A stretch of DNA of 50,422 nt, filler included, from Jimgerdemannia flammicorona (taxonomy: Eukaryota), in the NCBI GenBank assembly GCA_003990765.1. It is 2 parts of 2 records of this genome, joined end to end, with 100 filler letters (N's around TTAATTAATTAA, not from the genome) between each part and the next. Parts side by side here need not be neighbours in the genome. Positions count along the whole stretch, not along the records: positions 1 to 25,166 come from RBNJ01000872.1; 1 more part is not named here. One strand, written 5' to 3'. Positions 160 through 25,166 of this stretch are shown piece by piece. Within the stretch, counting starts at the first letter, position 1. Each line of letters starts with the position of its first letter. The position numbers were made by a program, and so were the translations under genes. The notes below the pieces were generated by a model. That model was not told the origin of the DNA and made no database searches. It worked only from the letters and a program-made list of their open reading frames with translations.

Positions 160-1128
160 TTATTATTATTGTTTCATCTTATTTTACTTTATTTTATTTT
201 ATTTTTAATAAGGAAAGTCGTCCAATTCGAAAAAGCAGTTGCAGGGCCCGACGGAAGGGGATAAGACAGGAGTGGCTTGGGGGTGATCGCTCACGGCTAC
301 CGGGCAAACCCGGGTTAATGGATTAACAAAGGATCTCATCACGAACCATGTTATAAAATCACGTCACATGGCATACTTGGTGTACACATATGTATACTTA
401 AATGTATGGCGAAGGTATTTAATGGTACGCAATGTACTGTACCAGGATTTTGTAATGTGCATGCGCCCGACTCTTCCAACAGCCGCCATTCCTGTGCTTG
501 GTCCTTCGGTAAGTTAAAATTCGCCAAGGGCCTGCCTAAGCTGTGCTTCACCATGAATATAATATCATATACTACTAACTACATGAGAAAATTCAATATC
601 CCATTGATCAGCAGGAAGCCTCTCTGAGCCATCTGTCGCTTTGTAAACCACATCTCGTATCCTTTTCTCATCTCACTTACATATATTAGCAAATACATAT
701 TGTCAACCCACTCATGTAACCAAATCAAAGGCCGGAGCGAAACCTTGATTATCGACCGCTTACGGAACTTGAAGCCGAGTTTGGTTGACTAAAAGGTATT
801 TAGTTTTGCATAATAACCTTGGTTGGGACCCGAGCCTTATACGTTGCATATACGTTGCATCGGAGGGGCGAGCCACATGGTCATACAATGATGACTACAG
901 GTGAAAGAAACAATGCAATATGCAATATGCATTATGCTTATCGAAATTAGATCATATATATATTATAACGCACATAATAGCATAGTTTATGATGCACTCA
1001 AACTATAATGGCTTGGTTCCGCTATCTCGAAAAACCCCGCATAGGCATAAGATGCGTAAGTAAATTGGATTCGTAGACATAAGGTGGAATGGTATGGATA
1101 TAAAGCATAAGCAGAGTACACAAAACAT

Positions 1129-3544
1129 CTATTCAAAATCATGAAATTGGAGTTGAAACCGAATCAAGCGCATGTCGGGGTCCTTCGAAGGCCAATAGAC
1201 TGAGGGATTTGCCTTTGTAATGATGTAATCCACACTGACCCGGCCCCGATTAATCAATGTCAGTAACTCCGATTTGAATCTCCCGAAATCCTCCTCGGTC
1301 TTGTTAAAGCGCTCTTCGACGAAGTCCCAGAATGTTGCCCAGTTCAAACGGTCGCAGTCTCTGCGCTTCACGGATTTGAGTCTTTTTAACAGTTCCTTGC
1401 GATTTTTACTGTCCGCGGGACACCATGCCGTGACCGCCACCTGCTTCTCTGGATCTGAGTTTGGGAACCGCAAGTCAAGCACCACGAAGCTGCCCCAGCG
1501 TTTTCGGTTCTTCACTAGAATGCGATCGTAGATCATCTGGATAAAGTGCACTATGAACACACCATACACCTTCATCATAGGGCTATTAAGGGATATTTTA
1601 TCTTCAAGAGGTGCGCGGAACGTGGAACGATCTCGTATGCTGCTAACGTCGTTTTGATGAACTGCATGGTGAAGGGGCGTGATGTTATTCTCTAAGTACA
1701 AGAGTTCCAAATTCTCCTCCTTGCCAAGCTTATGGTAGATATGGATCAGATCGCGTAACGATGTCATGGTGTCCTCGTGCCTTAGGCCGAGGGCTTTCTT
1801 GCGAATCTCCAGTGTCCGTCTGCCGTATGGCTCCGCGTCCTCGAACATTTGCTGGCTCGTATAGAAATATGATAGGTTGCTGAGAGCTGTCGCTGTATCT
1901 CGATGCTCTGGGCCGTTTGCAATCTCCGAGCTCGAAACGGCCAGCAGGGCAAAATCCTTGGCATCTTCGAAAAGAGCCTGTCGTGTGAGATAAAGGACGG
2001 TCGGCGACAGCAAAGACGGGAGCTCGTTTGAGATACCACGCTTCTCGGGGTCCCACAGCTTGAAATTCAAGATGACTTGTTGGATGTGTGGCATATAAAT
2101 CTCCATAACCCTTCTAAAATGTTCATAGTCTCCATGTTTAAAATTGGAAGGCACTTCGCGACTCAGCGCAGCGATGAGTCGCTTGCACCATTCGGGCTTT
2201 TCGGCATTGTCAATTTCGAGGCCTACAATGGTCTGAACGAGCCGATGAATTGAAACTTTTTCCCTGTAGACATCGCTATTGCTCAACTCAGTTGTGGTCG
2301 CCGCGATGCGGTGGACAAGGGAAGACGAGCACAATAAATTTATAGCCTTCTCAAGAGATCGCGGCGGAGGCTTGGCGGAATCAGGTAAAAAAATATGCTC
2401 TGGTTGTGCTCTGAAAAGTTGGAGTGGTATATTGTCCGGGTGAAGGAAGGCGAAGGCGTTGAGCAGATTGGCCGCGAAAGGGTTTTGGTCTTTAACGCGG
2501 GTGAAGCACATGTCCCAAGCAGTCCATACAGTGTGTACATAACTGTTACCCGTTACTTTCGTCAGTTCCTCCATATTTAGATATTCTTTCGGACTGTCTT
2601 TGAAATTCGTCAGGAACTCTACGGGTGTCAATCCGTCCTCTTCCATGCATGCAGCAGCCAAGTGTATTGCGAGAGGTAAATGACCTAATTCTTCAATGAT
2701 CAGCCGTCCAACTGAATCGTTTTCGGGGATGTTTTTTCGGAACAAAAGTTTCAATGCACTCTCTATATCCATTCTCACTTCATCCAAACTTATTACTGAG
2801 GTTTTGTGTTCAGCAACAGCATCACGAGACGTCAATAGGATATCGCCATCGCCTACGGTCGGATAAGAGTGGAGTATGAGTCTGTATACGCTTTCGTCGG
2901 CATTGTCGAACACCATAAGCCACCGTTTCCTTGCATCGTTGAACCACTGTTTCACCAGACTGATGTATACTGTCGGGTTTTCGATACCCTGGGTGGAGAG
3001 TTTGAGCAGCGTGGCCACCTTCAGAAAGCTGAAATTCAATGATTCCTCCGAATTGGCCATTATCCAGAAGACATACTGATACTTGGTAGGATAATTTCGA
3101 TAACAGTATTCCAGTGCAATCTGGGTCTTGCCCATTCCACCGAGGCCGATGAGAGCTACTCGCCCAAGGCTGCAGTTTTCCCTGTTGCCATCCAACAAAT
3201 GCTGCAGCTTTTCGAAAACATCTTCACGTCCCACGAATCGGTTGTTTCGCACCTCGGGTACGTCGAAAACTGGCACCAGTGGCCGACAGGCATCTGAACA
3301 GTTGTGAGCGACAGTGTCTGGGTTGCACACAGATAGATCAAGATTCCCACAGTTATTTTCATCTGGCTCATGTAGTCATTTGATCGCGCGCAATACATCA
3401 AATTAAATTCTCACCAAGATACAAGGTAGAATTGTGTATTTCCACGTTGTTTCCGGCAAAGGCAGTGCCACCATTGTCCGCTGTGGTCTCGCGTTCGAAT
3501 GTTGTATTACGAGGGCCCTTGGTACTTGAGCTAGATTCATCCAT
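1129..3544 (-). CDS. Fungal NLR-like STAND protein: short N-terminal motif, NB-ARC, TPR, ankyrin-like remnant and an extra C-terminal domain; exons 3415-3544 and 1129-3317, ~772 aa
   Basis: Motifs: RNNRFVGRE, Walker A GLGGMGKTQIALEY, Walker B WLMVFDNAD, ILLTSRD, LGHLPLAI, IHRLVQ, and kinesin-light-chain-type TPRs (GPEHRDTATALSNLSYFY; LGLRHEDTMTSLRDL). ATG at 3544 opens 43 codons + 1 nt; the intron GTGAGA...CCCAG (3414-3318, 97 nt) joins it in frame to the 733-aa ORF. Confidence 0.9.
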
Positions 3545-4598
3545 GGCTGGAATAATCAATTGCGTTCAAGTGTAAACCCGCAGCAATATTGGTGGTCGTA
3601 CAACGATTTTTGATCATCGAGAAAAGGCAGTCTCGCAACGGCTTGTGTAATCAATTCCTCGTGACCACCCAATGACGTCACAAACATGTGTACATATTTT
3701 TGGCTATTCAAATTATATTGTGCGGTTTTCAGCACACAGAATATTCCGGTTCATGCACACGGATCTCAAACTCGTCTAGTAGCAAATCCTCGATGTGCAA
3801 GCACACTTTTCGTCTTTGGGTATGACAAGCTCAATCACAGTATTGTCTAAATTTAAGCCGATTGGCGTGCTAAACCTGGTATTTATACTGCAGCGTTTGG
3901 AAACAATTGTTAAAGGGACCCCACTTGGAGCACGAGCTCGGTAATTATCACGTCAAGTAGTTGACCTGTGAAGATGGTTTAGTGCATTTGGGCGGATCAA
4001 ACGAAGATTCGGGCTCCATATAAACAACGTAATCGAATGCAGCAACGCACCATGCACCTGATAATCTACCGGTTGTATGCGGGATTACCCACCGCAAACC
4101 CTTCTCCGGCAGGCGGTTAATAAAAACCAAATCAGCATCACTCACACGCGCAAAATAGGTTCGTTTGTTCGAAAGCGGCCAGTTGCACTGCTAAGGATCT
4201 ACTTGAATTTATTTTAATGAGTAGAGAATATTTCAAAATTTACATAATAGTAAAGCTTACGTAACAATATTTGCAGTTTTCATTAAGAACTCAGCCCGAA
4301 CTGTTTTTGCTCTCTCAACGTAGTTCCATAGTATATTATTAGACATAAGCATATTGGAATATTATATCTACAAATATTTTGTAAAAAAAATCTGGTTACA
4401 TATTCTTGACATACAGCACTTGTAGTGCGAGCTTCATTGAAACTTAGAGATTCTTGGTTTAGCGTGGGATTTCGAACGATGTGGATATAACCTTAGGTCT
4501 ACAAAGGCTACACGCACCGTTCATGATGCTGTTTGTATTTCAATTAGGCATCCAACTGTTAAATTGTTCAATGACGCATATGTTCCACAACGAATTAT

Positions 4599-5126
4599 CT
4601 ATTGAAAGTCGTGAAATTGTATTTGAAAGCGAACCAAGCGCATTTCGGGATCTTTCGAAGAACAGTGCGCCGAGGGATTCGTCATTGTGCTGATGAGTTC
4701 CACACTGAGCCGGCCCCTATTCACCTTTGTCACTAGCTCGGACTTGAATCTTGCGAACTCTTTCTCGACTTGGGTAAAGCGCTCCTCGATGAAGTCCCAT
4801 AAGATCGCCCAGTCCAGGCGGTCACAGGCCCTGCTCTCCACGGGTTTCAGCTCTTTCAACATATCCTTTCGATTCTCAATGTCCGCGGGGAGCTTTTCTG
4901 TGGCCGCCACCAGCTTCTCTGGCTCCGAGTTCCGAAACCACAATTCCAGAATGAAACTGCCACTGACTATTTTTTTCTTCACTAGGGCGTGGTCGTAAAT
5001 CATCTGGATGAAGCGCGCTATGAACACACCGTACAGCTCCATCAAAGGGCTAAAGTGAGATACCTCTTCAGGAGATATGCGGGACTGATGTTTTGTGGCA
5101 CGGCGACGAGAGGATGTGTTTCCCAT
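4599..5126 (-). CDS. 175-aa protein of unknown function, paralogous to the NLR C-terminal domain; N-myristoylation-type start
   Basis: Intact ATG-TAG ORF. Residues 26-175 align with the last 151 aa of the NLR (about 92 identities, one gap, by hand), with many third-position differences. N-terminus MGNTSSRRR fits M-G-x-x-x-S plus a basic patch. Confidence 0.88.
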   Translation of the reverse strand: MGNTSSRRRATKHQSRISPEEVSHFSPLMELYGVFIARFIQMIYDHALVKKKIVSGSFILELWFRNSEPEKLVAATEKLPADIENRKDMLKELKPVESRACDRLDWAILWDFIEERFTQVEKEFARFKSELVTKVNRGRLSVELISTMTNPSAHCSSKDPEMRLVRFQIQFHDFQ

Positions 5127-6591
5127 GTTGAATTAGTTGAAAGGATAAGGCGTCGAATCAACCTAGGCCGGGAAAGTTTTATAGGACATTTAAGGCTGTG
5201 AAACCTTTATGAAATGTGACCGTATAATAGAGCGAGCCAAGATATTTGGCGTATCAAATTCCAATGATAAGTACAGCACAAGATGTTTCATTCCTCCTGA
5301 ACGACCGTTTGTACCTTCAATGAGAAAAAGAAAAAAAAATTAAAAGGGGTATGATTTCAGCATAATGTTCAGCTTTTCCTCTAATTCCACTGGCGACGCT
5401 TTGGAAGACAGGTGTTAAAAATGATAACACAAAGAAAAGTCGGGATCTAGGTTCACGGAGATACGTCGAATTAGGGTATCTATTTATACGTTATTGATAG
5501 AACACAAAAGTATCACCTCATGGAATGTGAATTCTATTTCATCCGAGCCGATCTGAAGCATCTTAATTGACTTTGTATCCAGCGGTATAAGTTTCCGACA
5601 GTATGTGCAATCTTCGTCTCAAACTATAGTAAAGAAGCAGTTGTTTTTTACCTCTTCTCGGGGGGTTTTTGACCTCTCCACGACTTTGCAGGCTACAACC
5701 CCGAATTCAAATTAAAATATCAACAAACGAGGCTCAAACGGTGAGCACCTCCGCGTGATAAAATTAGTTATTTTGTCCGCCCCTGAAATGTTCAGCATGC
5801 GGTATATCCACAGCTAATGTCCCCGAAAATTAGATTCATTTCCAATTTTATATAGTATCCGTTTGAACGGAGGTGCTGGTTATTTTGGAATGTGCCGGTA
5901 CGGTTTTCCTTGGCGCAGTCGAAACATGGAAGAGTATATACGCGGATCATCGATCGGCGAATTTGGACCATAAATGCCAAATTACCGATTGAGATTTTCT
6001 AGAATATTGAAAGCAACTCCGCAACCTAATTATCTCCCGTCTTTATCATCATTTACAACAGTTATCTGAGCTCATTTTGGGATGCCGTCAAGGGTGCTGT
6101 AACCAGGCACCTCTTATTTGCCGCATTTGCGGACGTGTTTATCCGTCGAGAGAGATGAGGATAATCTTGTGCATCGTCTGTCTGACATGACACAACCACG
6201 GGGCCGAAAACCTTAAATCGTCGGAGGGACAATGATTTTTTATTCGAACGCCGAATAACTGGATCAAGCCACGGCTAACAGACAGAAAGAAGGAAGACTA
6301 ATTCAACAAAACCGAGTGAGACTTTTGAAACAAGGACGGTGAAATTTGTAAAGGGCCTGCAACTTGTCGCCATTGCCAATTTTTCGTCTCTTGGTTGGTT
6401 TATACCTCTGCTAATGAATTTTGTTGCAAACCAACCTGTCGAGACAAAAATAGACATATTGAACGGATTCCTTGATTGGATGCGTTAATGCTATGTGTGT
6501 CTTGCCATGGCTTTCGGGAATCAAACCAAATATCGGATAAAAATCATCAATGATTTTGTCTCTTTTTATGTGAATAAAATTCCATCCCTAT

Positions 6592-16584: not shown

Positions 16585-17004
16585 TCTTCCTGTGGATCCA
16601 AATCCTTTCTTTTCTCTTTTCATTTCCTCCAGCTTTTTAGCTTCTATGATCTTTGGTTGTAGGATCGGAAAGATCAACATTTGTACCAATCAGTCCTTCT
16701 TCTTGACTGGAAATGGGATTGTAGGATTGTAATTCCTAGCAATAAGTAGAATTTCTCCAGTATAGTCTGAATCGATGACTCCTCCTTTGATTGTGATTTT
16801 GCTTCTAGCTAGGCTGCTTCTTGTCTTGAGAATCCCAATATGATCCTTTGAGATGGTCATCTCTAGTCCAGTTGTGAGTAGGGTGGTTGTCTGGGGTTTC
16901 AGTACAGTCTCTTCTACTGTAGCAATATCTATTCCAGCTGCATTTTCTGACTTGTATTCTGGCAAGACTGCATCAGGGTGGATCTTTCGAATCTTGACCT
17001 TGAT
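16585..17004 (-). pseudogene. dUTPase domain of Gypsy A, between protease and RT
   Basis: All five trimeric dUTPase motifs: AAGIDI, RSSLA, GVIDSDYTGE, VQML, KGFGSTG; one in-frame stop at 16690. Confidence 0.92.
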
Positions 17005-19174
17005 TTCTTCTTCATCATTACTGTCCTCTAGGAGGGCTGGTGGTTCATCATCTTCCTCCTTCTCTTCTTCTCTGATCTGTTTTTCAAGAGCTTTCTGCCT
17101 TCTTTCTTGGTAGATCTTCTTGATTCCGATGGTGCACTGGTAGCAATCATTGACATACTCCATACAGTATATCTTGATTCCATGAGGACAGACTCCTTGT
17201 GGGACATAACCTTCTGCAATCTTCTTGCACCATTCTTCTTTACTCATCTATCCAACTTTCTTCTTCTTTAGAATGGTCACCATATAAGCTTCCTCTTGCT
17301 CACTCTCTTCTTCCTCTATGTCAGGCAGGACTCCTTTGTTGACATTGATGGAAATTTATATCTTCTGTCCCTGGTAGGTGATCTGTATCTTCTGAGCATT
17401 GAGATCGATTACTGCCTTGGCTTTGTGAAGCCATTGATTGCTGATGAGGATGTCATAGTTGGTGGCATTGGTTACAATTATATTTACTGGGATGGTTGCT
17501 CCTCCAATCTTAATGGGAACATCTCGGATCTTTCCCAGAGGTGTGGCTCTTATGCCATCAGCTGTAACAAACACCAGCTTAGTTGCTTCTTCCACATCCC
17601 AACCTAGGCGGTCTGCTGCCTTCTTGCTGAGAAGACATCCTCCTGCTTCCATATCAATGATGGCTTCAAAGATTCTATCTTCGATTTGGCATATTGCATA
17701 AGCAGAGGTTTTGTGATTGTCCTCACTTTCTTCTCCTGAGTCCTCTTGAATGTTATTGGCCTTGGTTATCTTCCATTCTTATTCCTTAGTTGTTTCGGCA
17801 AGTCCAAACCTCATTTGCTGTCTGAATGTCGGGATTTCTGCGAGCTGACCAAAGGTTGCATTGACTTTTTGTTGACTGAGGTCCCTGAAGATATCATACT
17901 TGAAGGTCTTGGTCTTGTGAAGCTTCTTTTCTTTTTCTCCTTCACTGGCTGGAGTGGTTCCTTGGATGATATCTTGAACTACTTGCTCCAGCTCCATATC
18001 TTGGTCCATCTCTTCAGCTTGGCTTTCTGTAGCAGTTTCCATCTGCTTTTCCACTGGGTTCTTCTTGGGTCTTCCTGGCAGTCTCTTGTAGGGTTCTTTG
18101 CAAACATCCTTCTTGGTGGTCTGAGCAGGATAGGCCTCCTATTCCTCTTTATCGGATTCTCTGATTTCTTTAAAGGTAATTGTGTTGGCCTGTTTCTTAT
18201 TTCTAGTAGCATTGCTTGGTTGGGCCTTATGCTTAGTTTCACTCATATATTTGTATGAGTAGTGGCCTTCTTCTCCACAAGTATAGCAGGTGCCTTTCTT
18301 CTTGTCTGAGGTGGCAGCAAACTTCTGAACAGGGTGGCAGTCTCTTCCTCAAATTTCCTTTACCACATCTCCCAGGTGGGCAGTCATTTTGGCAAACCTT
18401 TTGGCAAGTTCCTCTATAGGGTCACTATTCTTTTGCTGCTCTGTAGCTTTTGGCTAAGGTGTGTTTTGATTAATCATTATGGTAGAGATCACACTGGTTG
18501 CCTTGGGTGCTTCAATTTTGACTCCCATGACCCTTTCCATTGTATGGTCTTGTGGATGTCTGGCTATCCAGTATCGCTGAGTATAGATGACCTTCTGTGG
18601 CAGATCCAGAATCACTGGTGATGAGCAGATGGCCATGGCTATCTCTGGGTGGACTCCTTTCATGAAGGTTGCTTTGGCTACTTGGTCTCAGATAGTATCG
18701 GCATAATCTGCAAGGATTAACTAATATTGGATTCTGGTGTAGAATGTGTTTGGATCTTTGCTCATTCCTTGGTATGTTGTATTGAGCTAATCCTTCAGAG
18801 CTTGCTTGATCTCATCTGTATAGTAGGTGTTTTTGAAGCCAGGTCTTCTGTGCTATCAGTGTAGCATCGGCATCATTTCCCACATAGTTTGCAGCTGTGA
18901 ATGCTGCTCTTGCAGGGCCTCATAGGCTAAAGGGCATAAGGGCTACTTGCTGTGCTGCTGTCAGGGTCCTTACAGTGGCATACTACTCAAAATCATCAAT
19001 GAAGGTGATGATTGATTCATCTGAGGTATATCTATAGAATACTGGTAGTCTCATATCCATCTTGTCTGGGTATTGGGGCTCAGTTTGTATGGTTGTTTGG
19101 GTAGTGGTAGTTGTTCATTGTTTAGCTTGAAAGTGAGGGATTCATCTTGAATCACTAGCCAATAGGCACCAAGT

Positions 19175-21564: not shown

Positions 21565-24500
21565 TTATTGTTGTTGTTGGTGGTCCCTGAATCCTGGCCG
21601 TAGCATAGGGTTGCTCGTAAGACACATTCCTTGTATGCAGTGTTCGAATTTTGGCCTCGGAAGGGCCTTCATAAGAGAATCCGCCATCATAGACTCTGTT
21701 GGCGTATATTCCAGGCGTATAGTACCGTTTTCCACGCATTCGCATATATAATGATGTTGAATGTCGATATGCTTAGTCCTTGCATGATGTAAAGGGTTCT
21801 TTGCTAATGCAATCGTAGATTGATTATCCTGTAAGATCAGCATAGAGTCTTGTTCCTGAGTATACCCTAATTCTTTTAGTAATTTCCATAGCCATATGGC
21901 TTCCTTAGTTGCTGTGGACAACGCTTGATATTCCGCTTGCGTAGAGGATGTGGCCACCGATGATTGCTTACGTGTTTGCCACGAGATAACCCCTTTGCCG
22001 ATATGGAAGAGATATCCGGTCGTAGAGCGCTGGTCGTCGAGGTCGCCGGCCCAATCGGCGTCGCAAGCTCCGGAGACATGCACGTGACTCCCGCTTTATC
22101 CTTTATCACCGCCCAAACTGAGCGTATAGTCTGCTGTTCCTTTGATGTACCTGAATATGCGCTTAATTGTCATCCAATGCGAGTTGTCATAGCATGAGGC
22201 GTACTGCGCCACTTTGTTTACTGCATAGGAGATGTCTGGTCGCGTTCCTTGCATAAGATACATAAGGGATCCCACCACTTATCTATAGGGGATGTTCTTG
22301 TCGGGCGTAGGGTCACTTTTCCTTAGCCTCGTCGTAGTTTCCATTGGTGTCGCCACTGGCTTACAATTGCTCATCCTGAATCGTTCAAGTACTTGCTTAG
22401 TGTAGGTGGCTTGGGATAGATGTATAGCACGCTTGTTTCTGTCACGTGTAATCGCTATCCCCAATAAGAAGGACACGTCGCCTAAGTCTGTCATCTCGAA
22501 TTCCTGGCATAGCATAGCTTTTACTTCATTAACTTGGCTCCTCTTGCCAATGATTATGATGTCATCGACCCATATCCCCAAGTATACCGTTCCTGAGGAT
22601 GTATGTCGCGTATATATGCATGGATCCGCTTCGCACTGCCGAAATCCGTTGTCAAGCAGATATTGATCGATCTTCCAATTCCATAGTCTCGCCGCTTGCT
22701 TGATTCCATATAACCCTTTACGTAGTTTGCATACGAGCTCTTTCCGCCCGTCGTATAGTTCGTATCCTTGCGGCTGTTGGACGTATAGTTCCGTATCTAC
22801 ATCACCGTTCAGGAACGCAGTCTTAACGTCCATCTGCTGTATTTCGTAATCGTACTCGGCGCCGATAGCCAGTAGTATGCATAGAGAAGTGAGCTTGAAT
22901 ACGGGAGAGAACTTCTCGTCGTAGTCTATGCCGTAATTCTGTGAATATCCCTTAGCAATGAAGCGTGCCTTGTACCGCTCTATGCTTCCATCGCTTTGAC
23001 GCTTAACTTTATATACCCAACGAGATCCTATAGCTTGACGATCCCTCGGAAGAGGTACTAGATCCCAAGTACCGTTGCTGATGAGCGAATTATACTCTTC
23101 ATTCATCGCTCGCTTCCACTCCTTGCTATCAGGGGAGGATACAGCTTTGTCATATGATCGTGGATCCACCGTTGTCAAGTATGTGCACTCGCAAGCGTAG
23201 TTCACATGATGCTTGTGTCGGGTCTTCGGAACATTCCAATAGTCTCCTAGATCTGTATCCAATGTCCTGGATTTGCGCTTTTGTTTACCTTTCGTAGATG
23301 GGAGAATCGTCTCCGCTTCACTAGTCTCATCATTGCTATCCCTTATCTCAGTTATCCTCGGTCCAGGAGGTGGCGAATGAATCCTCGCCAGGATAGGTGA
23401 CATTTTCGGGGGTGTCTTCAGGGGTGTGACTGGAGGACTTGCCGGAGGCGTAGTACTGGCCGCCGGAGGCGTAAGATTGATTGCCGGGGGCGTTCCCGGA
23501 AGCGTATGTGTAATCGTAGTCATCTTCTCAATATTCACGTGTGAATCCTGTATGCCGGGTTCCTTGAATGTAACGTCATGGGAGTTAACAATTCTCTGCT
23601 TCCTTGGATTCCACAGCCTATACGCTTTGCAACCGTTGCTATACCCGAGGAACACATGCTTAGTAGCCTTTGGATCAAACTTATCCTTATTTCCGCTTTT
23701 ATCTAGCACGTAGGCTTCGCTTCCGAATATGCGTAGATGTGAGATATCGGGCCGATTTCCACTCCATAGCTGATGTGGCGTAGCATTATCCTCGTTCCTG
23801 GATTGCTGATTGTTGCCACAAGCATCCTTGCTTAGAGCTTGAGAAATATACCTATTGCGTATATACACTGCCGTATTCACCGCTTTGGCCCAAAAGGGCT
23901 TCGATAGATCGGCCGCGTTGAGCATTGTACGGGCCATCTCTACTACCGTTCGGTTAAAACGCTCCGCTACGCCGTTCTGCTGAGGCGTATAGGGAGCCGT
24001 CGTTTGGTGTTTTATCCTGTGTCTCGTCAAGAAGTTCTTGAACTGATTATTAACGTACTCCTTGCCGTTATCTGAGCGTAGTGCTCGAATTTTACGTCCG
24101 GTCTTGTTTTCGACGATAGCCTTATATTCTCCGAATTTTTCCAAAGCTTCGCTCTTCGCCGCCATAAGGTATACGTAGACCTTGCGCATATAGTCGTCGA
24201 TGAATGTAATAAAATACTTCTTCCCGGAGTGTGATTTATTTCTCACAGGTCCCCATACATCTGAGTGTACCAAATCGAGTATCCCTGAGGCTCGTTTTGT
24301 CCGTTCCTGGAAGGGTTGTTGACAGGCCTTGTTCATCGTGCAATCATCACATGGCATATGGTCCGGGCATAAGTTGTCTGGGAGTCCGCTCACCAAACCG
24401 TTCCTTATCATACGTTCGAGGCTTGTCGGGCTGATATGTCCGAGTCTCCGGTGCCAGGTATACGCTACGCTGGTCGTTCCAGACCACGCTGCATTCACCG

Positions 24501-25166
24501 CAGCTACGCCACTTAGCGTTCCGTTTATTGCATATAAGTATCCATGCTTCCTGGTCGTTAATGCTTCTTTGCCATCGAGATCGTATATCTTCACGCCATC
24601 GCACGTTCCTGAGATTCGCTTATCCCCTCATGCTAGCGTTCGACCCATCGAGAAGAGGTTCTTTCCTATCCCTGGAGTGTACAGTACGTCCATAAAGGTC
24701 GCATAGGGTTCCTTAACGTTTCCATGCAAATACATGCCGACGTTGCCCTTCCCCTGAGTATATATAACCTTATTATCACCCAATCTGATATGCACGGGGT
24801 TGTCAAAGGGTTCGTACATAGAGAACCACTCGTGGTGTGAAGTCATATGCTGGGATGCGCCCGAATCTAGGAGCCAGATGTCCTCTTCGTCGCATGCAAT
24901 ATTAGCGCTCGGTGTATACTCGTCTCTGGCGCTGGCGCACATGCTGTTTACGTCACCGCCACTTTTCGCACCTTGAAAAGTATTCCGAATGTCGGGTTCC
25001 GTAGATGTCGAGCAAGCGCATTTGCAGGTAGAACTGGCGCTGGTGGATGTAGAACTAGATCTCGTAGATGTCGGGGTGGCTTGCGCATTTTTCACCGGTC
25101 CAAAAGGGTCTGAATCTACATCAGCGAAGAACAATCCTCCCTTATCGGCGTTAGAATCTGCGCTAT
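21565..25166 (-). pseudogene. Copia pol polyprotein with three in-frame stops
   Basis: WLLDSGASQHMT; WHRRLGH...CDDC; HSDVWGP, RSDNGKEY, QNGVAER; QMDVKTAFLNG, WVDDII; CDADWAGD. Stops at 24628, 22279 and 22096 lie in one frame. Confidence 0.93.

Follow-up and report, generated by a model that had tools for sequence, protein, structure and literature searches.

A conserved N-terminal block encoded by the first exon of an NB-ARC/TPR receptor gene in Jimgerdemannia flammicorona, a candidate amyloid-type signalling tag

A window of DNA from the early-diverging fungus Jimgerdemannia flammicorona (Endogonales, Mucoromycota; GenBank assembly GCA_003990765.1), 50,422 nucleotides at its full length with filler included, was analysed; positions 1 to 25,166 come from RBNJ01000872.1. 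On the minus strand near the left end of the window we found a non-canonical NOD-like receptor (NLR) gene of the NB-ARC/TPR type. Its dedicated first exon encodes a real, conserved and lineage-specific N-terminal tag, and the same block recurs at the N-termini of two paralogous NLRs of this species. We tentatively put this block forward as an amyloid-type signalling tag, through which the receptor would give its output; at present it is a well-defined candidate and not a demonstration.

Gene structure

The ATG at 3544 on the minus strand starts 43 codons (MDESSSSTKGPRNTTFERETTADNGGTAFAGNNVEIHNSTLYL), after which one further base opens a split codon. The split codon, G at 3415 with AC at 3317-3316, encodes Asp and is in frame with exon 2, giving a predicted product of 43 + 1 + 728 = 772 residues. 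Contigs of two public runs (X1 and X2), whose library type was not recorded and was guessed to be RNA, were compared with positions 1000-5300. The parts of the gene were as follows.

3545..3569, minus strand: observed 5' untranslated stretch, with an in-frame TGA at 3568-3566, eight codons before the ATG (contigs colinear with the genome)
3415..3544, minus strand: coding part of exon 1, 43 codons and the first base of the split Asp codon (sequence, contigs and the starts of deposited models P0005 and P0130)
3318..3414, minus strand: intron of 97 nucleotides, GT..AG, phase 1 (joint 3317->3415 in X1 record 6, 0 mismatches, shorter side 155 nucleotides)
1129..3317, minus strand: exon 2, a single unbroken frame of 728 codons with stop TAG at 1131-1129 (sequence; X1 records 4 and 1)
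3363..3414, minus strand: alternative intron of 52 nucleotides implied by deposited model P0130, which adds DENNCGNLDLSVCN[P/Q] (P0130 against the window translation)

The original prediction had proposed exon 1 at 3544..3415, spliced in frame to exon 2 about 25 residues before NB-ARC. The exon and its splice in frame were confirmed by contig record 6 of X1 (503 nucleotides), which matched 2970-3317 and 3415-3569 with 0 other letters and skipped the 97 bases between 3317 and 3415, the ends of which read CT..AC on the plus strand. The distance was underestimated, since 32 residues separate the splice from the Pfam start of NB-ARC. The intron boundaries are GT at 3414-3413 and AG at 3319-3318; the donor reads GTGAG after base 3415, and the acceptor side, ending in ...CCCAG at 3318, is canonical and polypyrimidine-poor. 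Contig record 15 of X2 covered 3415-3560 and ended exactly at the exon edge.

Upstream of the ATG, X1 record 6 (to 3569) and X2 record 15 (to 3560) were both colinear with the genome. Because the former spans the in-frame TGA, no longer 5' coding exon, which would have spoken against the predicted one, was seen; the X1/X2 contigs had no cover at 3592-4311 and 5176-5300. X1 records 4 and 1 were colinear over 2229-1486 and 1504-1169, and the C-terminal part is therefore the same uninterrupted exon. The 52-nucleotide intron at 3414..3363 was found in no X1/X2 contig, the 97-nucleotide joint being the only one seen. If X1 were DNA, the joint 3317->3415 would indicate an intron-less copy, but the very uneven depths in X1 and X2 (from about 1 to more than 2000) probably speak against a DNA library. 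Exon 1, the 97-nucleotide intron and the in-frame junction are thus confirmed as real, and the NLR gene, with the run library guessed to be RNA, is expressed, intact and correctly spliced. A run of about 67 T on the plus strand (A on the gene strand) is located at 92-158, about 970 nucleotides downstream of the NLR stop.

Exon 1 had been described as hidden. It was in fact already present at the start of two NCBI models of Jimgerdemannia flammicorona, RUS33857.1 (P0005) and RUP51896.1 (P0130, same 90% cluster), which differ in their acceptors. In the former, a partial model of 427 residues, the first 43 residues are identical and are then joined to GDGDILL, by which the P-loop half of NB-ARC is lost. 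The latter (579 residues) uses an acceptor at 3364-3363, giving the 52-nucleotide intron and 15 extra residues, DENNCGNLDLSVCNQ; at the place corresponding to this added stretch the window encodes ...CNP. The models of two paralogs, P0006 and P0125 (RUP44387.1), seem to read through the homologous intron, as past ...NLG/NFG they continue with an intron-like translation (GESLF versus GENLI), which suggests that the intron position is conserved across these two paralogs and this gene. The deposited models of this NLR family therefore conflict at intron 1, one skipping the P-loop, one using the 52-nucleotide intron and two apparently reading through, and the present analysis corrects two of them.

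The conserved N-terminal block

NB-ARC begins 75 residues from the N-terminus of the protein, and Pfam revealed no family in the exon-1 peptide even at E<=10. Seventy-five residues cannot accommodate a HeLo, TIR or enzyme domain, in agreement with the prediction that no room was left for one. Most of exon 1 encodes a conserved block instead:

3416..3499, minus strand: conserved block F16-L43, FERETTADNGGTAFAGNNVEIHNSTLYL, candidate signalling motif (alignment of three paralogs, 16 invariant columns; P0125 at E 9.5e-10)

The block was located at the extreme N-terminus in all three of its carriers, namely this gene, P0006 and P0125, which are all NB-ARC proteins of the same species. P0125 was newly found at E 9.5e-10, independently of the query seeds, and contains a Pfam NB-ARC at 88-222. 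The three-way alignment has 16 invariant columns (M1, F16, E17, T21, A22, D23, N24, G25, T27, A30, G31, E35, I36, H37, N38 and T40); after E-I this gene is three residues shorter than the two paralogs. A distinct conserved motif, which the original prediction had offered as a possibility, is therefore present, recurring in the N-termini of two paralogous NLRs.

Pairwise identity of the block was 15/28, 19/28 and 22/32 (54-69%), compared with 69% (133/194) in the NB-ARC region; overall identity to P0006 was also 69%. As the block comes near the value of NB-ARC, it appears, from protein identity, to be constrained roughly like the ATPase. In a freely drifting tail much lower identity would be expected.

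The block contains 14% N, 11% G and 14% T, versus 5.5%, 3.4% and 4.8% in the remaining protein. By eye its layout alternates as FERETTA, DNGG, TAFA, G-N, (N)VEI, H-N and STLYL, with invariant turn-formers about 7 residues apart, DNG(G) at 23-26, G31(N32) and H37-N38, and short alternating stretches between them. Judged in this way, the layout looks like that of a beta-arch. A four-copy complex prediction of the 43-residue peptide reached a score of 0.02 against a mark of 0.32, without controls, and weighs neither way. The exon-1 peptide gave no usable match in the ESM Atlas.

Comparison with known amyloid motif families

The block had been thought to resemble the HET-s-related layout. This likeness found no support: the Pfam-A scan at E<=10 gave no family for any of the three N-termini, with HET-s prion-domain and sigma-type models included (HMMER filters can hide very weak matches), and a profile run against every PDB chain sequence at E<=10 returned one unrelated RNA-polymerase chain (E 1.8) and no solved HET-s chain. 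The predicted hydrophobic-G-N ending is retained in part. A small-residue-G-N element occurs as AGN in two of the three paralogs and is replaced by AGI in P0006, and the G[DN] bigram is not invariant. No clear triple of the HRAM-type hydrophobic pattern was revealed, the candidate inward positions being T, A or G. Neither the PP core NxGxQxGxN nor G.Q.G occurred in the three block sequences. The RHIM core tetrad, [IV]Q[IVLC]G, was likewise found in 0/3, with no Pfam match.

What was found is the general form of an amyloid-like NLR N-terminus, that is, 75 unannotated residues with a block of 28-32 residues conserved in three paralogs. Generic aggregation scales were left aside for the block, as they discriminate such motifs poorly (PMC8086366).

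Three described systems may be compared with this arrangement. HET-S/NWD2 (HRAM) also has one motif unit at the NLR N-terminus, roughly one beta-solenoid rung, and AGN is shared by two of the three paralogs; unlike HET-S/NWD2, the block has no Pfam or PDB match, and no HeLo or HeLo-like gene carrying the motif twice lies next to the receptor gene. NWD2 is moreover of the NACHT/WD type, whereas this receptor is NB-ARC/TPR. PNT1 of the RHIM-related PP system HELLP/PNT1 has the NB-ARC/TPR-type NLR architecture. Such an NLR with a short G/N-rich N-terminal tag is found here too, but the core that defines the PP system (PMC9815663) is absent from all three block sequences. With the bacterial BASS1-10 motifs of Bell/NLR pairs the gene shares the logic of a short tag on an NB-ARC/TPR receptor; unlike them, the block has no prokaryotic carrier, the exhaustive search having given only repeat-protein false positives.

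A resemblance is also offered by the orphan NLR motifs of Wojciechowski et al. 2022 (PMC9815663, Table 1), such as NLR17 (Amanita muscaria), NLR19 (Tuber) and NLR05/08/22 (Agaricomycetes). Both here and there the N-terminus is shorter than 150 residues and free of Pfam domains, a conserved motif (12-30 residues there) lies near the very start, the taxon is narrow, several paralogous NLRs occur per genome, and no motif-bearing effector is nearby. The block differs in its sequence, unrelated as far as testable, in its host, a member of Mucoromycota and not of Dikarya, and in having three carriers; the orphan families were moreover defined by grammar and ArchCandy filters, while the block was judged by its strand/turn layout by eye. 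According to the text of the same paper, 17% of short fungal NLR N-termini (1537 NLRs) carry amyloid-like motifs of 12-30 residues, 11 of the 16 families listed in Table 1 lack an effector in the neighbourhood, and in Basidiomycota partners are described on non-adjacent genes (PMC9815663). The block may plausibly be added, as a candidate only, to these orphan amyloid-like motifs of NLR N-termini.

Possible function of the block and search for a partner

The N-terminal module of an NLR is its output. With a conserved N-terminal block of 28-32 residues, regular turn-formers and no other N-terminal domain, the block is therefore best read as a proximity-activated homotypic tag. We might propose that it is the output tag of the receptor; ligand-driven oligomerisation of NB-ARC would gather several copies of the tag, and the gathered tags could fold co-operatively to form a stack of strand-turn-strand units (beta-arch, amyloid-like). 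The stacked tags would then recruit or template another protein bearing this tag, in the manner of NLR amyloid signalling in fungi and bacteria. Amyloid signalling is defined by two features, amyloid formation and a cognate effector; for the block, the beta-arch layout, the self-assembly and the existence of a partner are inferred, and we regard an amyloid-type signalling tag as possible, with more doubt than confidence. A wider proposal is somewhat unlikely: that the block founds a new amyloid/prion-type motif family, the first in a Mucoromycota NLR, that the gene of its partner lies apart from the receptor gene and perhaps in DNA without annotation, and that the receptor has as its sensor an integrated copy of an orphan protein expressed at a high level.

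Several results weigh against the amyloid-type tag. The block matched no known amyloid-motif family (Pfam, PDB sequences, PP and RHIM patterns), and it is polar and charged (E17, R18, E19, D23, E35, H37), strongly hydrophobic positions being few. Its carriers are three paralogs only. Among the 12 closest homologs fetched it was present in two, P0005 (which is this gene) and P0006, and the models of the other 10, some possibly missing exon 1, lack it and start near NB-ARC or with unrelated short tails. The model of P0004 (82% identical) begins precisely at the exon-2 border, and exon 1 may be missing only from the model. Among the paralogs with accessions RUP51804.1, RUP44387.1 and RUP51961.1, it is the last that has a model beginning with exon 2. 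The sensor end of this NLR is also rearranged, and the gene may not act as a standard receptor.

The remaining points against it concern the partner. As the original prediction had stated, the window revealed no effector bearing the motif: when the peptide was compared with all 50 kb by tblastn, only the gene itself matched (E 1.6e-26), the next best match being at E 0.54. In a word-indexed search of 5.8 billion clusters for longer proteins, two of 24 candidates matched, and both were seeds. An exhaustive HMMER search with a two-row block profile against 1.84 billion protein representatives (E<=0.001) found seven proteins, namely this gene, the paralog P0125, three fn3-repeat proteins, one SprB-repeat protein and one unnamed repeat protein. 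The five bacterial-type repeat proteins were rejected as chance matches because their scores come from 5-12 short stretches each, over which the E-values are summed. No non-NLR carrier, and thus no motif at an effector C-terminus as had been predicted to be worth searching, was revealed among these representatives. Search of the JGI metagenomes gave 156 pattern matches, of which one passed tblastn, and no true carrier; the one locus (L001) was a chance match, lying antisense inside an N6_Mtase/HsdM methylase gene. Effectors (HeLo, HeLo-like, SesA/B, PNP_UDP) with a C-terminal motif were found neither in the window nor in annotated or predicted proteins or the JGI metagenomes. The partner searches covered the window, proteins and metagenomes, but neither genes without annotation nor the genome to the left of the window. 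Within this cover, conservation of the motif was seen in NLR homologs, the two paralogs, and in no effector.

A segment of the rejected bacterial fn3 proteins (P0124, P0127 and P0128), P-A-D-N-G-G-S-A-I-S-G-Y-R-I-E-V, resembles block positions 22-36. This likeness is due to chance, yet it fits a DNGG turn between beta strands.

The same results could be explained if the block were conserved as a non-amyloid peptide, serving as an autoinhibitory lid of NB-ARC or as the place where a downstream enzyme or adaptor docks, and binding one-to-one without templating. The block is conserved like NB-ARC yet matches no amyloid-motif model or core pattern, charged and polar residues are abundant in it, and the window, proteins and metagenomes searched gave no homotypic partner, all of which such a peptide would account for. 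Linear docking motifs are usually shorter than 28-32 continuously conserved residues, however, the regular spacing of G/N turns is more typical of beta-arch motifs, and no candidate binding partner is known either. We consider a peptide of this kind somewhat unlikely.

Amyloid signalling and NLRs in Mucoromycota

According to the text of PMC9815663, NLR-linked amyloid signalling is documented for Ascomycota, has been argued to exist in Agaricomycetes and also occurs in filamentous bacteria. For Mucoromycotina, one source reports no NLR in 6 new and 14 public proteomes (PMC7928374), and in a later survey the number per Mucoromycota species is small, between one and a few dozen, with 26 N-NACHT NLRs in a species of Mortierellales (PMC12258605). 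Our literature search revealed no publication that deals with amyloid motifs of NLRs in Mucoromycota. The terms 'Mucoromycota', 'Jimgerdemannia' and 'Endogon' occur nowhere in the text of PMC9815663, whose supplementary motif tables lie outside this check and may list the block; in the text of PMC12261475 the Mucoromycota terms are absent, and in that of PMC10197012 there is one occurrence, in the reference list.

If the amyloid-type tag is true, NLR amyloid signalling would extend beyond Dikarya and bacteria. A verified tag would show whether short templating motifs are an ancestral output mode of fungal NB-ARC/TPR receptors, and would also offer a compact test peptide.

Domain architecture of the NLR

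After the 43-residue exon-1 peptide and a linker of 32 residues, the 772-residue product contains NB-ARC, DUF7779, a short TPR stretch and an orphan domain, here called domain X, in this order. Residue numbers below are those of the exon-2 translation.

2638..3222, minus strand: NB-ARC, residues 32-226 (Pfam PF00931, E 7.1e-09, 35.7 bits, cut-off 23.5)
3147-3124, minus strand: P-loop GLGGMGKT (sequence)
2203..2490, minus strand: DUF7779, the winged-helix-like part after NB-ARC in TPR-type NLRs, residues 276-371 (Pfam PF25000, E 5e-09)
1720..1899, minus strand: short TPR stretch TPR_10/TPR_12 of about 60 residues, 473-532 (PF13424, E 3e-13; PF13374, E 5e-11)
1132..1602, minus strand: orphan C-terminal domain X of 157 residues, 572-728 (no Pfam family; replaces the Sel1/ankyrin repeats of paralogs)

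The central NB-ARC ATPase with its P-loop, by which a fungal NB-ARC/TPR NLR (STAND, signal transduction ATPases with numerous domains) is recognised, is present. Superstructure-forming repeats are represented only by the roughly 60 residues of TPR_10/TPR_12, the ankyrin/Sel1 array of the paralogs being replaced by domain X. Protein search with the NLR gave 342 matches at E<=0.001 among 8000 scored candidates. Among the matches listed (120 of 342), the best relatives were all from Jimgerdemannia flammicorona, and the closest non-fungal relatives of the NB-ARC/TPR core were bacterial and archaeal.

Domain X and the neighbouring gene

The next gene, about 1 kb upstream of the NLR and on the same strand, encodes a second copy of domain X:

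4599..5126, minus strand: free-standing domain X open reading frame (ORF) of 175 codons

NLR residues 572-728 of the exon-2 translation were 59% identical to this ORF (93/157, E 2e-63). The DNA of the two copies was 75% similar over 459 nucleotides, in coding sequence only and ending at both stop codons, and a dS of 0.81 with dN/dS (nonsynonymous to synonymous substitution ratio) of 0.31 (162 codons) points to an old duplication under purifying selection. Homology of the NLR to the ankyrin-type paralog P0008 was solid to about residue 543 and then faded, leaving an ankyrin-leader stub TPLHHAV...SIRDR. Domain X in place of Sel1/ankyrin repeats looks like an integrated-domain arrangement.

Domain X matched no Pfam family and nothing in the ESM Atlas; a near-length protein search gave 0/28 candidates at E<=0.001, and in genome_contigs 0/146 pattern matches were confirmed. 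AlphaFold2, run on a two-row alignment, gave no confident fold (mean pLDDT, the predicted local distance difference test, 43.4). Contigs 90-95% like domain X (1144-1575 and 4600-5031) had a word depth of 715-1439 in X1/X2 versus 1-6 for the NLR body, so close domain X paralogs appear to be abundant in these runs, and some of the contigs map partly to each copy (for example, joint 1224->4706). Additional paralogs of domain X, represented in abundance, are suggested at other places in the genome.

Output or choice of partner might run through domain X instead of the N-terminus, the NLR monitoring in a decoy-like manner, or co-assembling with, a small abundant family whose free-standing member lies next door, and the N-terminal block would then be secondary. 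The identity between the NLR and its neighbour, the restriction of their similarity to coding sequence at dN/dS 0.31, the substitution of domain X for the Sel1/ankyrin repeats of paralogs and the depth of the similar contigs (against 3-6 for the NLR body in this comparison) all suit such a route, and HET-S/NWD2 was recognised by the same reasoning, from the homology of an NLR to the gene beside it (PMC9815663). On the other side, domain X has no known family, homolog or usable fold, its C-terminal position is that of a sensor and not of an output, and conservation of the block in paralogs ending Sel1-like (the P0006 model, 628 residues) would be left unexplained. A route through domain X seems unlikely to us.

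The free-standing domain X ORF begins with MGNTSS (5126-5106, minus strand), which fits an N-myristoylation pattern. The common pattern, G-x-x-x-[ST], is of low specificity.

Genomic surroundings

The window is rich in retroelements, with a Copia-type pol at 22279-24594 and a dUTPase-bearing ORF at 16690-17247. Considering these surroundings, the NLR might be a remnant among transposons, either decaying, left with no effector or of regulatory use only, with the N-terminal likeness of the paralogs due to shared ancestry without function. Its sensor repeats are truncated, the paralogs are deposited as fragmentary models that disagree with one another, and the depth of NLR contigs is low (1-6), as decay would have it. 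The frame of 772 codons is nevertheless intact, correctly spliced and covered by contigs, domain X is under purifying selection, and the block is about as conserved as NB-ARC at about 69% identity, where neutral sequence would be expected to be much less alike. A remnant is improbable, and we give it little credit; the amyloid-type tag is kept as the preferred reading of the block.

The Copia-type retrotransposon pol region extends over 22279-25134 on the minus strand and contains gag_pre-integrase, rve and RVT_2, in an ORF of 771 codons and a Pol_BBD ORF; the pol within 22279-24594 and the dUTPase-bearing ORF (minus strand) are flanked by AT-rich stretches (guanine-cytosine content 0.27-0.33) at 6-14 kb and 32-38 kb.

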